Shown one piece after another: positions 1 to 19,300 of a stretch of DNA of 28,171 bases. The stretch spans positions 1 to 28,171 of the IMG/VR virus record IMGVR_UViG_3300032305_001698; one strand, written 5' to 3'. Numbering within the stretch: position 1 is the first letter of the stretch; every line of letters starts with the position of its first letter. Below the pieces are notes generated by a model. The model was not told the DNA's origin. It worked only from the letters and a program-made list of their open reading frames with translations, and searched no databases. Source of the DNA: a virus. Its lineage: Duplodnaviria; Caudoviricetes. The position numbers and the translations under genes are program-made.

Positions 1-224
1 TCCGACCACTGCGCGTTGATAAACTGGCTGCCCTGCACCGGCACGGTAACGGACGAAACACCGCCCGTGGCCTGCTGGCTGTTTGCAATCAGCGCCGCCA
101 TAAGCGGGGTGCTGTTGTAAATTTGGACAACGAGTTTCGGAATGAACGCCCTACGAGTAAGGTAGGTCAGTTCAGTGTACTGCGTGCTCCCCGTTGCGGG
201 GAGAATACCACCACCAATTGGCAT
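1..224 (-). CDS. Major capsid protein, N-terminal part (runs off left edge)
   Basis: Not in ORF track. ATG at 224 with AGGAG SD; reads MPIGGGILPATGSTQYTELTYLTRRAFIPKLVVQIYNSTPLMAAL... open to the edge. Lies downstream of portal and scaffold-like genes and resembles capsid N-termini I recall from uncultured phages. Confidence 0.8.
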   Translation of the reverse strand, partial: MPIGGGILPATGSTQYTELTYLTRRAFIPKLVVQIYNSTPLMAALIANSQQATGGVSSVTVPVQGSQFINAQWS

Positions 225-798: not shown

Positions 799-984
799 TC
801 AGATCACCTTTTTGCCATCGCCGGGCGGCTTAATAGCCATCCGGTTCTTCGGACCAGTAGCAGCCGAGTTCTTCAAGCCGCCAAGCTGCGAAAACCGCGG
901 CGTGTTGACGATTTGACCGTTCTGCTGGGTGTTGTCAGTGGGGCGGCGGGGGTTAGAAGCCCCGCGTGGCTTAAAAAGGTCCAT
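799..984 (-). CDS. Small basic hypothetical head-module protein (61 aa)
   Basis: Fits exactly between neighbours; GAG SD; MDLFKPRG...DGKKVI. Confidence 0.75.
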   Translation of the reverse strand: MDLFKPRGASNPRRPTDNTQQNGQIVNTPRFSQLGGLKNSAATGPKNRMAIKPPGDGKKVI

Positions 985-993
985 TTCAAACTC

Positions 994-1575
994 CTATCGG
1001 GGCATTCCCGGAGGCGGACCACCCGCACCCGGCATTGGGGGACGGCCAGGCGGCGGACCACCCGGCATTTGCATACCGCCCGGAGGCGGACCACCAGGCA
1101 TTCCGCCCGGCATTGGCATCGGCGGACCCGGAGGCGGCGGGGGTGCACCCGGAGGACCACCGGCACCAGCCATGCCAGGAATAGCCGGCATACCGGCCAT
1201 CGCCTTCATTTCGGGCGTTGCGCCGCCAGCTTGCGGCAAATTCTGCAACAACTGGAGAATTTCGGCGTTTTGAAGCTCGCCAACCTTCTGCCGGCGCGGC
1301 CCCATCGCTCCTGTGAGCGAACGCAAAGCGGCCACCATCTTCTGGCCGTCAGGAGTCTCAGTGCCAATTGCCGGCAAAGACTGCTCAATCAGGTCCATCG
1401 CCATGCCCACGTTGATCAACGCGGCTTCACGGGAACCCATCTTAGGCTCAGGCGTACTCATCGGTGCCCCCATCGGCGGGGTCGCAGTACCACCCTCACC
1501 CGGATTGGGTGCAGTAAGTTCCGGTGCTTCTTTCGGGCGCTGGCTTTGCAGCAGCCTCATCACGCTTTCGGACAC
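994..1575 (-). CDS. Pro/Gly/Met-rich hypothetical head-module protein (193 aa)
   Basis: GTG start at 1575 with GGAG SD is preferred over TTG 1629; helical core followed by GGPPPG repeats. Confidence 0.75.
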   Translation of the reverse strand: MSESVMRLLQSQRPKEAPELTAPNPGEGGTATPPMGAPMSTPEPKMGSREAALINVGMAMDLIEQSLPAIGTETPDGQKMVAALRSLTGAMGPRRQKVGELQNAEILQLLQNLPQAGGATPEMKAMAGMPAIPGMAGAGGPPGAPPPPPGPPMPMPGGMPGGPPPGGMQMPGGPPPGRPPMPGAGGPPPGMPR

Positions 1576-1629
1576 TTGATGCTCCAAAATAACAATCGCG
1601 GGGTAACACCCACGTTCCAGCAAAGTCAA

Positions 1630-1665
1630 GCGGGACTATTTTTATCTTCCGGTCCCGCGCGGAAG
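1630..1665 (-). other. H-type RNA pseudoknot
   Basis: Minus strand CTTCCG-C-GCGGGAC-CGGAAG-ATAAAAATA-GTCCCGC: S1 6 bp, L1 1 nt, S2 7 bp, L2 0 nt, L3 9 nt A-rich; all pairs Watson-Crick. Confidence 0.75.
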
Positions 1666-1673
1666 TCGCGGAT

Positions 1674-1699
1674 TAACGACTGCTCAAGGCAGTGCGTTA
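1674..1699 (-). other. RNA hairpin directly after micro-ORF stop
   Basis: TAACG-C-ACTGC-CTTGA-GCAGT-CGTTA: 10 bp with a single-nt bulge. Confidence 0.6.
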
Positions 1700-1700
1700 G

Positions 1701-1733
1701 TTACCGGCGAGCCTTACGACCCTTGCGACGCAT
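1701..1733 (-). CDS. 10-aa Arg/Lys-rich micro-peptide MRRKGRKARR
   Basis: AAAGGAGGT SD followed by CTCCA then ATG; TAA stop; co-oriented with the head operon. Confidence 0.7.
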   Translation of the reverse strand: MRRKGRKARR

Positions 1734-1772
1734 TGGAGACCTCCTTTCATGGCTAGAGTTGCACACACCGCA

Positions 1773-1817
1773 TTAGCGGCAGCCTTTACGGCGACCGCGC
1801 TTGACGGACTTGTACAT
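1773..1817 (-). CDS. 14-aa Arg/Lys-rich micro-peptide MYKSVKRGRRKGCR
   Basis: AAGGAGGTGAT extended SD overlapping the upstream stop, then ACC ATG; TAA stop. Confidence 0.7.
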   Translation of the reverse strand: MYKSVKRGRRKGCR

Positions 1818-1821
1818 GGTA

Positions 1822-1983
1822 TCACCTCCTTTCCGAACGCGCATTAGCGCGTGGCGCTGCCCTGTTACCGAGGGTGCGAATGGAAGATACCCTGTATTCT
1901 ATCGAAGGCGAAGGATTACCGCGCGCAATGTCTTTCGCTTGCGCTCGGGGCTGGTCGGATTGGATTCTAAAATCCTGCGCCAT
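1822..1983 (-). CDS. 53-aa basic hypothetical protein
   Basis: Not in ORF track. TGATG overlap with the portal stop; MAQDFRIQSDQPRAQAKD...RANARSERR. Confidence 0.75.
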   Translation of the reverse strand: MAQDFRIQSDQPRAQAKDIARGNPSPSIEYRVSSIRTLGNRAAPRANARSERR

Positions 1984-7759: not shown

Positions 7760-8434
7760 ATGCTTACACACCTAGTGCTTGAAAGCCGTAACGGCAAAAC
7801 AGGCCCGATACCTGTTTCCACATCCAGCAAGGCAACCTGCCCGGCTTCCTGCCCGCTGTATGCCAAGGGCTGCTATGCCGGGGGCGGACCGCTTGCCATG
7901 CATTGGCGCGCCGTGACCAATGGTGAGCGTGGCGACACATGGCCCGTGTTTGTCAGCAAGATTGCGGCATTGCCCGATGGTCAATTGTGGCGACACAATC
8001 AAGCGGGCGATTTGCCTGGCGCTGATAGCAAGATTGACCGCAAGGCTTTGTTGGCGCTTGCCAAGGCCAATGAAGGCAAGCGGGGCTTCACCTATACCCA
8101 CAAGCCTATGACTAAGGCCAATGTTACCACGATTACCATGGTCAATAGCCTAGGCTTTACCGTCAACCTGTCAGCAAACACTCTTGCCGATGCCGATAGG
8201 CTTGCCGATACAAAAGCCGGTCCGGTGGTGGTGGTGCTAGATGCCGCTGAGGGAGTTCGCCATACTGTCACCACGCCGGCCGGGCGTACGGTTGAAACCT
8301 GCCCGGCGACATACCGCGATGATGTGTCATGCGCGACTTGCCAACTATGCCAGCGTGTAGACCGTAAAGTCATTGTGGGCTTTCCCGCCCATGGCGTGAG
8401 TAAGAAGGCCGCCGCGGCAATTGCGCGGGGCTGA
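7760..8434 (+). CDS. Cys-rich phage protein (DUF7227/GP88-like), probable metal or Fe-S binding (224 aa)
   Basis: N-terminal TCPASCPLYAKGCYA, RHNQAGD, YTH, NLSA and C-terminal CPAT...CATCQLC...FPAHG motifs; family name from recall only. Confidence 0.7.
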   Translation: MLTHLVLESRNGKTGPIPVSTSSKATCPASCPLYAKGCYAGGGPLAMHWRAVTNGERGDTWPVFVSKIAALPDGQLWRHNQAGDLPGADSKIDRKALLALAKANEGKRGFTYTHKPMTKANVTTITMVNSLGFTVNLSANTLADADRLADTKAGPVVVVLDAAEGVRHTVTTPAGRTVETCPATYRDDVSCATCQLCQRVDRKVIVGFPAHGVSKKAAAAIARG

Positions 8435-8515
8435 CAATCCGGCAGGGCGGCATCGCTTGTGCGGTGTGCGCTCTTCCCGATTGCCATGCTGGCATCGATA
8501 ACAGGGGATAGAACA

Positions 8516-8755
8516 ATGACACATATTGAAGCCCGCGCGGAATTGCGCGAATTGATTCAAGCCCGCGCATCATGGGAGCGCGCCAGGCATTTGTGGGCGC
8601 ATGGCCTTGTTGGAGATGCGGCATTCAATCGCTTCGAACGGCTTTGGGCGTGGTCTACTGCCACTGAGCACCCGTTAACGCGACATGCCAGCCTAGACCG
8701 CTGGATAAGCCGCCGGGACCGTATCCGCAACGCATTGCGCGCCATTGGCGCATAA
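8516..8755 (+). CDS. Hypothetical Arg/Trp-rich protein (79 aa)
   Basis: ATG 8516 after AGGGGATAGAACA. Confidence 0.7.
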   Translation: MTHIEARAELRELIQARASWERARHLWAHGLVGDAAFNRFERLWAWSTATEHPLTRHASLDRWISRRDRIRNALRAIGA

Positions 8756-8767
8756 GGGGGCAGCACA

Positions 8768-8851
8768 ATGACCATACTCAAAACCCTGGCCGAGGGGCTG
8801 GCGTTTCTCGTGCTGCTGGCGGGAACCTGTTTCTTGGTGGTGGTGCTATGA
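8768..8851 (+). CDS. 27-aa single-pass membrane peptide
   Basis: Not in ORF track. AAGGGGG SD; MTILKTLAEGLAFLVLLAGTCFLVVVL; ATGA overlap with the next gene. Confidence 0.7.
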   Translation: MTILKTLAEGLAFLVLLAGTCFLVVVL

Positions 8852-9147
8852 GAAACGCCAGCAAACCGCAGCTTCACGCTAAAGATGCGCGCAATAGACC
8901 GGACATTATGGCGGCGGTGCGCGCCGGCTATCATGATGCTCTGGCCGGTCTAGGCTACCGCGCGGAGTATGAGACAATGAAAGCATACCAGCAGCGCAAC
9001 TATACAAGCGGGCGGCTTATGGCGATCGAATTGCTCACCAAGCGCACCAAGCCCCCCGCCTGGCCGGATAGCGTGAAGCTCCCGCGCCGGATCGAGGCTA
9101 TCGCGCAAGATGTGGCGCAGTCTTTTGTGCGGCAACCGCCCGCGTGA
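8848..9147 (+). CDS. Hypothetical protein (99 aa)
   Basis: ORF track; translationally coupled to the upstream peptide. Confidence 0.7.
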   Translation: MRNASKPQLHAKDARNRPDIMAAVRAGYHDALAGLGYRAEYETMKAYQQRNYTSGRLMAIELLTKRTKPPAWPDSVKLPRRIEAIAQDVAQSFVRQPPA

Positions 9148-9229
9148 TACTCCCCGCGCGCAAAATCCTGATAACGGCGGCCGGGCTGGCGATAGCGTCA
9201 TGCCTGGCCGGCATCTATTTGAGGCTCCG

Positions 9230-9862
9230 ATGATCGAAACGAAATTGCTCACCGCAATGGATTGGGTAGCGCCTGCTATGTGGGCACCGCTGCTGCAAGA
9301 GCATATGGCTCGCGCGGGAATGACGGGCAAACCGATCCGCGCGGCGATGGCACTGGCCAATTTTGGGCATGAGACCAATGGCGGGCGGCGCTTGATTGAG
9401 AGCCTGGACTACAACCCTGACCGCCTGGCGGCCGTGTTTGGCGCTCGCGCCACCACGCGGGCGCTTGATGCCTGTAGGCGTGTCGGACACCCAGCGGACC
9501 AAAAGACAATCGCCGAGGAAGTCTATGGCGGCGATTGGGGGCAGCGCAACCTTGGCAACAAATTGCCGGGCGATGGCTGGACATATCGCGGGCGGGGCTT
9601 GATCCAGCTTACGGGGCGGTGGTCCTACGTGCGCGTGGCCGGCGTGCTGCAACGGGAATTGACCGACGAATGGGTGGAAAGCATCGGCACGCCGGCCGGC
9701 GCGGCAGAGAGTGCCTGCATTTGGTGGTCCCGTATGGGGCTGAATGACCTGGCGGATCGGGGAGACCTAGGCAGGGTCCGCAAGGCAGTGAATGGCGGCC
9801 ATGTCGGGCTTGATGACGTGAAGCGCCGCTATGAACTGGCCCGCGCACTGCTTGTGGGGTAG
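9230..9862 (+). CDS. Glycoside hydrolase family 19 endolysin (210 aa)
   Basis: GHETNG, GDGWTYRGRGLIQLTGR and VNGGHVGL motifs; GAGG SD before ATG 9230. Confidence 0.9.
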   Translation: MIETKLLTAMDWVAPAMWAPLLQEHMARAGMTGKPIRAAMALANFGHETNGGRRLIESLDYNPDRLAAVFGARATTRALDACRRVGHPADQKTIAEEVYGGDWGQRNLGNKLPGDGWTYRGRGLIQLTGRWSYVRVAGVLQRELTDEWVESIGTPAGAAESACIWWSRMGLNDLADRGDLGRVRKAVNGGHVGLDDVKRRYELARALLVG

Positions 9863-13799: not shown

Positions 13800-14047
13800 C
13801 TACCGATTGGAAAGACTGGCGCGTGGCCGACACCGACATCAACAAGCGCGTGAAGACCGTGCTCATGGCTAACGATCCGGCCATGACCTGGCAGGATGTG
13901 CTCGGCATGAGCGAGCGTGACCTGAGCGCGCTGCCGCATATGGGCAAGACCAACCGCGCCCACTTGCTGGACATCCTGCGCGATGGCGTGGCCGGCAAGC
14001 TGGTGAAGTGCAACCGCACATTAGGGGAGGTGATCGGCGATGAGTAA
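13796..14047 (+). CDS. Stand-alone RNA polymerase alpha-CTD-like (HhH) protein (83 aa)
   Basis: INKRVKTVL...TWQDVLGMSERDLSALPHMGKTNRAHLLDIL follows the alpha-CTD pattern (LxxRxxNxL...DL...ExELLxxPNxGKKS..EI). Confidence 0.65.
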   Translation: MTTDWKDWRVADTDINKRVKTVLMANDPAMTWQDVLGMSERDLSALPHMGKTNRAHLLDILRDGVAGKLVKCNRTLGEVIGDE

Positions 14048-18657: not shown

Positions 18658-18801
18658 TCATCGTCGCGCAGTGCGCTTGCTCTTTCGGAACGCTTTAGCC
18701 GTAGGAGCACCTTTGCTTCCAGGCTTCCTCATACGTTCACCGCTACCTTGCTCAATTCGCCGTCTTTTTGCGTGAATGTTTGAATACAATCCGGGTTTCA
18801 T
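18658..18801 (-). CDS. 47-aa highly basic phage protein
   Basis: Not in ORF track. ATGA overlap; MKPGLYSNIHAKRRRIEQGSGERMRKPGSKGAPTAKAFRKSKRTARR, a pattern I recall from many uncultured phages. Confidence 0.8.
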   Translation of the reverse strand: MKPGLYSNIHAKRRRIEQGSGERMRKPGSKGAPTAKAFRKSKRTARR

Positions 18802-19052
18802 CGGCATTTCCACCTACGCATTGACGCCCTCGCCCGGCTGCCAGGCTTAGACTTTCTGGCAATGGGACGCATGCGCGCACAAAATGAAGCCTTGCGGCCA
18901 GCTTCTTTTGCGTTGCGCGGGTTGGGCGCTGGGGCTTTCAGGCGGCTGCCTGTGGCCTTGTTGTAGCGCGCCCTACCCTTGGCCGTGAGACCCGCCCCGC
19001 GGCTTGCAGGCAGCTTCTCACCGCGCCCTATGCTGAGGCTGTCCCCGGCCAT
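18798..19052 (-). CDS. Basic phage protein, DUF6321-like (84 aa)
   Basis: GAGLTAKGRARYN...LKAP...RKASFCARM...RRWKC. Confidence 0.75.
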   Translation of the reverse strand: MAGDSLSIGRGEKLPASRGAGLTAKGRARYNKATGSRLKAPAPNPRNAKEAGRKASFCARMRPIARKSKPGSRARASMRRWKCR

Positions 19053-19300
19053 TAGTAAACCTTTCGGCCAGGCTTGGTGGTGGGGCTGTCCTTGGTGTTG
19101 GTGGGGTTATCCCCAAAGCCCCACATGCTCTGATAGCCCCCCTTGGGAAGCTCACCAGACCTGAAAGTGGGCCTACCGTCCTGGCTGCCATCGCGCGGCA
19201 ACTGCGGTCGGTAAGCCTCCGCAATCTGCTGGTTTTCGTCCTGGCTGCGCTTGAACTTGACGGGGGTGCCGCTGTTCCTACCCGCGATCGGTTTCATCAT
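19052..19300 (-). CDS. Hypothetical basic protein (82 aa)
   Basis: TAATG overlap with the downstream gene; AAGGA SD. Confidence 0.7.
   Translation of the reverse strand: MMKPIAGRNSGTPVKFKRSQDENQQIAEAYRPQLPRDGSQDGRPTFRSGELPKGGYQSMWGFGDNPTNTKDSPTTKPGRKVY

Follow-up and report, generated by a model that had tools for sequence, protein, structure and literature searches.

Tailed phages are thought to hold their DNA by means of a motor and host ions, and not by means of encoded basic peptides. Strong polycations can stall packaging and block ejection. Motor-packaged phage capsids, as a group, do not balance the charge of the genome with basic protein domains (PMC7096446) and, in consequence, the need for an encoded polycation is not general. 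Among the closest described systems, the following can be differentiated: (i) the microvirus protein VP8, of 38 aa, whose C-terminal Phe is buried in the coat (PMC11281519); (ii) adenovirus Mu (protein X), a peptide of 19 aa which is present at 100-300 copies per virion and helps to condense dsDNA (PMC7998265); and (iii) the T4 internal proteins IPI-III, which are high-copy (~360 each), non-essential proteins of the head interior of a tailed phage (PMC9958956).

Organization of the head module

The window, that is, the whole stretch of 28,171 nt that was analysed, belongs to a tailed phage whose head module lies on the minus strand in the following order: terminase, two small genes, portal, an interval, a Pro-rich gene, a 61-aa gene, a probable scaffold gene and the major capsid gene (Table 1). 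Terminase, portal and major head protein were all matched by profile searches in the phage or its lineage, the latter through the capsid protein of locus L002 (gene coordinates 8383-9399), which matches the major head protein phrog_9953. The solved structures nearest to the capsid protein by sequence are distant (7f38_A, E 1.6e-6; 9d80_A, E 0.018), and its structure prediction reached a pLDDT of 32. Its content of Arg plus Lys is ~4% and that of Asp plus Glu 5-6%, compared with 8-12% and 11-13%, respectively, in eight other phages; since acidic residues are as scarce as basic ones, the capsid protein gives no clear charge deficit. The Pro-rich protein did not align to the post-portal protein of phage HTVC010P, and atlas searches with the Pro-rich protein and with ORF-A returned unnamed clusters only.

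The lineage is large, its capsid proteins forming at least 3,873 clusters at the 90% identity level; the relatives of its capsid protein in genome bins bear mixed host labels, and a cultured relative of the window phage was not found in the phage collection. The annotation of the GenBank relative MW202825 gives the interval as a single antisense hypothetical protein, yet two basic micro-ORFs are contained in it. Elsewhere in the window (18658-19300, minus strand) there is a second cluster of small basic genes, coupled by overlaps, which encode (i) a product of ~47-51 aa with a Lys/Arg-rich tail; (ii) a product of 84 aa with 24 Arg/Lys, matched by phrog_10346 and related unknown families; and (iii) a product of 82 aa.

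Table 1. Features of the head module in the window. Shine-Dalgarno (SD) ranks refer to anti-SD pairing over the 3001 start codons of the window; pN/pS and conservation refer to 18 close genomes (pairs not independent).
Feature	Position	Strand	Observations
Major capsid protein gene start, truncated by the window end	1..224	-	73/74 residues equal to L002 capsid protein
Probable scaffold, 180 aa	255..797	-	Suggested by position ahead of capsid gene
Conserved basic protein, 61 aa, 11 Arg/Lys vs 3 acidic	799..984	-	
Pro/Gly/Met-rich protein, 193 aa, conserved head-module gene	994..1575	-	
Likely sigma70-type promoter: TTGACT, 18 nt, TG-extended TA box without last T	1600..1629	-	
Predicted H-type RNA pseudoknot, stems 6 + 7 bp, loops 1, 0 and 9 nt	1630..1665	-	
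Predicted RNA hairpin right behind micro-ORF 2 stop	1674..1699	-	Fold -11 kcal/mol; paired changes in L020, L021
Micro-ORF 2, MRRKGRKARR, 10 aa, net +7	1701..1733	-	DNA identical in 18/18 close genomes
SD of micro-ORF 2	1739..1746	-	Rank 12/3001
MRCVQL, 6-codon ORF, TAATG overlap	1753..1773	-	SD none
Micro-ORF 1, MYKSVKRGRRKGCR, 14 aa, net +7	1773..1817	-	Kept in 18/18 close genomes; pN/pS 0.37; one whole-codon indel
SD of micro-ORF 1, 11-nt match, includes ORF-A stop codon	1821..1831	-	Rank 2/3001
ORF-A, 53 aa, TGATG-coupled to portal stop; DQP + Tyr motif, basic C-terminal half	1822..1983	-	pN/pS 0.16
Portal protein, 537 aa	1983..3596	-	PHROG portal matches; Pfam SU10_portal above cut-off; named portal in MW202825

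Four ORFs follow the portal stop, all of them on the minus strand and at the positions given by the original prediction, which regarded those of 53, 14 and 10 aa as one chain of basic micro-peptides, with the 6-codon MRCVQL filling a gap. This grouping does not hold, since the 53-aa ORF (ORF-A) is a separate, clade-limited gene and MRCVQL is not conserved. The strong SD sites attributed to the chain are found ahead of both short ORFs, but ORF-A lacks one (rank 1042/3001 by anti-SD pairing). Furthermore, these two sites are not, as had been thought, the strongest of the window: they rank 2 and 12, and the first place corresponds to the predicted SD of a RecT-like gene (14022-14040, plus strand, with its start at 14040).

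Neither short peptide contains acidic residues, and the basic ones amount to 7 of 14 in micro-ORF 1 and 7 of 10 in micro-ORF 2. The string AAGGAGGT occurs in two copies in the window, one ahead of each short ORF, a count which is weak alone because it was reached in 7 of 100 shuffles. Two SD-led basic micro-ORFs, in turn, appeared in none of 2000 dinucleotide shuffles of the 275-nt interval, and one appeared in 34 of them.

ORF-A carries a net charge of just +6 over 53 residues and has no family match in profile and atlas searches. It occurs in 66/66 loci found through the portal but in 3/12 of those found through the capsid protein and, hence, it is younger than the micro-ORFs and constitutes a separate question. 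ORF-A is a real, separate and clade-limited gene; far from falling below the cut-offs of gene callers, as initially supposed, it is already listed in protein collections. In three loci (L095, L114 and L118) ORF-A is absent and the micro-ORFs lie directly behind the portal stop. Regarding MRCVQL, its location and TAATG coupling were described correctly, but the peptide is not conserved: counterparts of 4-6 codons with differing residues exist in 17 of 52 loci, one locus has it fused to the next ORF, and the overlap start is absent, with no counterpart, in the other 34. At most, MRCVQL would be a by-product of coupling.

Conservation of the micro-ORFs

The search with the portal protein kept 80 of 389 relatives, which gives 81 sequences with the window, 71 of them with enough downstream DNA. 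One to three Arg/Lys micro-ORFs are present in 70 of these 71; in the sole miss (L054) the micro-ORF keeps its SD and frame and the start reads ATA, which may correspond to a rare start, an error or decay. With a detector that requires an SD and a net charge of +5 or more, 65 of 66 dereplicated portal-found loci were positive versus 8 of 1638 equal background tiles, bearing in mind that relatives are not independent samples. Related phages keep SD-led, ATG-started, Arg/Lys-rich micro-ORFs, with synonymous variants in distant clades. The search with the capsid protein yielded 32 loci, 8 of which were set aside (7 with too short an upstream stretch and one false relative); a basic micro-ORF lies 1.0-2.6 kb upstream in 23 of the other 24, down to 33% capsid identity, as counted with a relaxed detector without SD requirement (the SD is weak in three loci). 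The strict detector gave 12 matches in 40.8 kb of portal-capsid interval versus 1 in 334 kb outside it.

By estimate, 920 viral stretches contain an SD-ATG-GRK-stop pattern. This pattern is in frame in 115 of the 120 viral loci listed, compared with 2/100 for a control pattern and, among the matches listed, all 75 in-frame viral loci with full flanks (75 among 80) fall in the head module. Among the metagenome contigs listed, 45 of 119 are in frame, 39 of which are basic, and 37 of these 39 are in the head module. Judging from these sequence comparisons, the two short ORFs are real genes kept under selection.

Four loci have an inverted portal. In these, the micro-ORF remains with the capsid operon, at a distance of 130-150 nt from the start of the portal gene in three cases, and the Pro-rich, 61-aa, scaffold and capsid genes travel with it. 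Additional genes have been inserted in L095, L097, L114, L118 and L206, where they separate the micro-ORFs from the Pro-rich gene.

This location bears on the possibility that the peptides act on the host or on the virion surface, by compacting or silencing host nucleic acid or by binding ribosomes or anionic envelope polymers, either late or after co-ejection. A high predicted output and a purely positive charge would permit non-specific binding to polyanions, and the T4 internal protein IPI is active in the host (PMC9958956). Nevertheless, such a role is quite unlikely: among the matches listed, the location is always the head module and never that of early or lysis genes, no cellular copy of the micro-gene appears among the metagenome matches listed, and the peptides are, by composition, not amphipathic.

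Beyond the lineage, an SD-led micro-ORF between the portal and capsid genes was found in 0/8 phages (T7, P22 and six cultured marine phages); HTVC010P has one 16-aa basic ORF with a weak SD, upstream of the portal. Poly-Lys and poly-Arg patterns gave 30 in-frame matches among 132 loci of other phage families. Most of them were rejected: L267, L289 and L321 are the tail of a long ORF, and L237, L261, L270, L275, L290, L295, L299 and L307 are out-of-frame shadows of real genes. It is plausible that about six unrelated lineages (the groups L239/L283/L304 and L257/L259/L293, together with L263, L285, L300 and L301) carry SD-led poly-Lys micro-ORFs. Several of these micro-ORFs adjoin terminase, portal or collar genes.

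Selection, charge and expected output

In the 18 close genomes, pN/pS is 0.07 for the portal, with higher values for ORF-A and micro-ORF 1 (Table 1). Across clades, a 7-codon core of the micro-ORFs has a ratio of 0.59 when read in the coding frame; the two remaining sense frames give 1.64 and 1.15, and the antisense frame with third positions in common gives 0.48. These values are partly circular due to anchoring on the core. No change to an acidic residue was found in this core. Micro-ORF 2 is unchanged as DNA in the close genomes although the portal has a pS of 0.38, and its being frozen even at synonymous sites suggests an added RNA-level constraint; in more distant clades, it shows both synonymous and Arg/Lys variants.

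That the ORFs are untranslated by-products of a conserved RNA or DNA element is very improbable. Such an element could account for the lack of synonymous change in micro-ORF 2 within the close clade and for the low antisense ratio, but not for the fact that SD, start and stop codons and charge persist through changes in length, sequence and flanks, nor for a coding-frame ratio below those of the other sense frames, nor for the excess of in-frame pattern loci over the control.

Among 123 distinct peptides of 9-28 residues, 121 have a net charge between +6 and +8, compared with 59% for shuffled residues, under a detector with a floor of +5 and no ceiling. The Arg share of the peptides tracks the GC content of the locus (rho 0.72). 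Such a fixed net charge with free exchange of Arg and Lys fits a charge-based role of the protamine or polyamine kind. A Gly-Arg-Lys/Arg core occurs in 91 of 121 peptides, whose C-terminal residue is Arg in 73, Lys in 45, His in 2 and Ser in 1. Some distant micro-peptides encoded upstream of the Pro-rich gene (L226, L229, L215, L230 and L233) start with a hydrophobic-acidic lead (M-I-E, M-F-E or M-D-I), possibly a targeting or cleavage signal.

Some of these traits would suit prohead assembly cofactors, that is, peptides that attach to acidic patches of the scaffold, the core or the coat and aid assembly or scaffold exit without being retained on the DNA. The Gly-Arg-Lys/Arg core has more order than a plain counter-ion requires, the micro-ORF accompanies the genes for the Pro-rich, 61-aa, scaffold and capsid proteins in loci with an inverted portal, and the M-I-E and M-F-E leads of several distant members could direct targeting or cleavage; T4 core proteins have a 10-aa targeting sequence (PMC9958956). 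All in all, this alternative is rather unlikely, given that the peptides have no conserved hydrophobic or aromatic anchor, that Arg/Lys exchange follows GC content and that scaffold and coat are near neutral overall. In the two peptides of the window, no capsid-targeting or anchoring sequence was seen.

In terms of expected output, the micro-ORFs resemble the capsid gene and differ from the portal gene: (i) the median SD energy is -8.2, versus -7.3 for the capsid and -3.9 for the portal; (ii) the CGT share is 0.54, versus 0.49 and 0.27; and (iii) the GGT share is 0.62, versus 0.56 and 0.36. Their stops are TAA in 59 of 65 loci, and read-through into the next gene was found in 0/65. The notion that these micro-ORFs are built for high output is supported by conservation, frame selection, SD strength and capsid-like codons. 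The one RNA run covering the region contains a 406-nt contig over 1470-1867 (depth 3.5, 93% identity); since contigs are silent on strand and level, it was discounted as evidence of expression. Genes for tRNA occur in 3 of 35 loci scanned (L021, 1295-1371; L025, 1-157; L035, 326-574); all three include a tRNA-Arg, with an ACG anticodon in two of them which reads codons preferred by the micro-ORFs (small numbers in any case).

Predicted RNA structures and likely promoter behind micro-ORF 2

Behind micro-ORF 2, a hairpin, a pseudoknot and a promoter-like box are predicted in succession (Table 1); the original prediction had overlooked the latter two. The score of the pseudoknot was reached by 0/300 shuffles, and in 72 of 81 relatives, selected for the presence of the promoter box and independently of structure, it exceeds the 95th percentile of both shuffles and 200 control sites. 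Most positions show several pair types, as counted by a structure-anchored script which is biased towards the structure (the MAFFT alignment was out of register). Folding of the whole region gave a z of -1.1, and that of the 45 nt behind the stops a median z of -0.9. At gathering score, Rfam models gave no match in the window and one tRNA in 9 related loci; between 1560 and 1900 there is one sub-threshold chance match. The pseudoknot is absent in the distant members and in the L042 group. In L029, L045, L071 and their relatives, a hairpin and a second conserved pseudoknot-like element lie between the micro-ORFs, just before the second SD; this second element is absent in the clade of the window. 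The RNA structures most likely serve as a clade-specific 3' protection.

The boxes of the putative promoter are invariant and its spacer is variable across the 18 close genomes, and in 103 of 143 loci the motif follows the last micro-ORF at a distance of at most 160 nt. A consensus promoter scan misses this TTGACT/TG-TA box, and in the main clade no conserved promoter motif was found ahead of the micro-ORFs; two inverted-portal loci have a TTGACA-N18-TA box just upstream of the micro-ORF. The TTGACT-N18-TG-TA box would likely be the promoter of the capsid operon. Since distant members have no pseudoknot, and since the micro-ORF of inverted-portal loci stays with the capsid operon, twice just behind the promoter motif, the peptide is the oldest part of the unit.

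These structures raise the question of regulation: the peptides could bind the adjoining hairpin or pseudoknot, or else their translation could control, as that of a leader peptide, read-through into the capsid operon. Lambda N with boxB is an example of an arginine-rich RNA-binding motif. Conserved hairpins and pseudoknots do lie behind the ORFs, the DNA of micro-ORF 2 and of its 3' flank is hyper-conserved, the micro-ORF opens the operon in L129, L212 and L213, and in L210 it is followed by a terminator-like hairpin; in T4, gene 32 is controlled via a leader pseudoknot (PMC10690425). A regulatory unit is nevertheless unlikely, because the peptide is older than the structures, being present in the distant members and in the L042 group without the pseudoknot; its place relative to the promoter varies by clade; there are 1-3 copies and whole genes can be inserted behind the micro-ORF; codons are optimal and Arg and Lys are freely swapped; and stops are not read through to the next gene in any of the 65 loci.

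Proposed role in screening DNA charge

Weighing these alternatives, the favoured reading, to which about an even chance is given, is that the micro-peptides are polycations made in bulk that neutralise DNA in the head. The strong SD sites, the capsid-like codons and a charge fixed at about +7, together with variation in length, sequence, copy number and position with respect to the promoter, point to a late, bulk-made device of small polycations, and the linkage of the micro-ORF with the capsid operon suggests the head as the site of action. In any case, such a position in the head module is also compatible with assembly or regulatory roles.

According to the charge-screening proposal, the +7 peptides would act as gene-encoded substitutes for polyamines, screening the charge of DNA during or after head filling. 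They would be made late and in large molar amounts, by virtue of a strong SD, capsid-like codons and 1-3 tandem copies, from a micro-gene message which the 3' hairpin and pseudoknot would protect. They would then reach the interior of the prohead, either through pores in the shell or together with the core, bind the DNA backbone without sequence preference and thereby reduce internal repulsion, and they would be short enough for shedding on ejection. By estimate, it would take 1,000-2,500 copies to offset 10-25% of the phosphates carried by a 35-kb genome; these copies amount to 12,000-30,000 residues, compared with ~140,000 residues in a T=7 shell (T=7 being assumed).

A wider formulation is tentative and somewhat doubtful as a whole, namely that the uncultured tailed phages of a very large lineage encode a polyamine of their own in the form of peptides of 9-15 residues and about +7, produced from pseudoknot-capped mini-genes (1-3 copies) and trapped in the head, where they would set DNA pressure where small ions leak, and that poly-Lys versions may have evolved in unrelated phages. 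If this were true, the peptides would count among the shortest structural gene products of viruses. A conserved, charge-fixed micro-gene would reveal a packaging aid overlooked by gene callers and tryptic proteomics alike.

Comparison with known systems

Such peptides are not described for tailed phages in the literature searched, which was mostly non-subscription, and five core peptide strings do not occur in it. A search of tables of the Fremin 2023 RNA catalogue gave no match. GMSC predicts ORFs from 9 aa, and the small phage gene families of Fremin 2022, GMSC or Fremin 2023 may list the peptides or hairpins without function.

With respect to RNA-based systems, the leader of T-even gene 32 holds a pseudoknot of compact H-type topology. 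The element of the window is also a compact H-type pseudoknot in a phage mRNA. But while the gene 32 pseudoknot lies 5' of the ribosome binding site that it controls, that of the window lies 3' of a micro-ORF and abuts a promoter-like box. The gene 32 pseudoknot is not modelled in Rfam (PMC10690425). Unlike an attenuator leader peptide, the micro-ORFs have a promoter-like box downstream in 103 of 143 loci and exchange Arg and Lys with GC content; a leader-like layout exists only in some distant loci. As for antiterminators of the lambda N type, hairpins are present here, but the peptides have no further domain and persist without the pseudoknot.

Among charge-screening agents and internal head proteins, polyamines and Mg2+ share with the micro-peptides the proposed screening of charge in motor-packaged heads (PMC7096446); those are host metabolites that cross the shell, whereas the cation proposed here is phage-encoded, of +7 and ~1.3-1.7 kDa. 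The T4 proteins IPI-III have a cleaved N-terminal peptide (capsid-targeting in IPII and IPIII), and the micro-peptides are far shorter; an N-terminal lead of that kind is absent in the peptides of the window, and short M-I/F-E leads exist in some distant members.

Adenovirus Mu is likewise a very short basic peptide but it is cut by the viral protease from a 79-aa precursor (PMC7998265). The micro-peptides, on the contrary, are predicted primary products with their own SD, start and stop, in tandem copies and with no read-through in 65 loci. The J/VP8 proteins of Microviridae (phiX174, SpV4) are small free-standing Arg/Lys-rich phage products encoded beside capsid genes, and the micro-peptides are also rich in Arg/Lys, with no acidic residues (7/14 and 7/10 basic). 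J/VP8, however, serves ssDNA packaging, while a dsDNA phage with terminase and portal is dealt with here, and the micro-peptides are mostly 9-15 aa long, have Arg or Lys as their last residue in 118 of 121 cases and lack a hydrophobic or aromatic C-terminal anchor. Thus, the comparison with microvirus J made in the original prediction stands as an analogy, but it does not extend to a buried hydrophobic C-terminal anchor of the J type, and a terminase motor is present.

In short, the polycation micro-genes are real, unannotated and deeply conserved, with an associated predicted pseudoknot, and their role is likely to be the screening of DNA charge in the head. The micro-peptides belong neither with J/VP8 nor with Mu, since there is no anchor residue and no precursor and a terminase motor is present; if the charge model holds, they would work like them.
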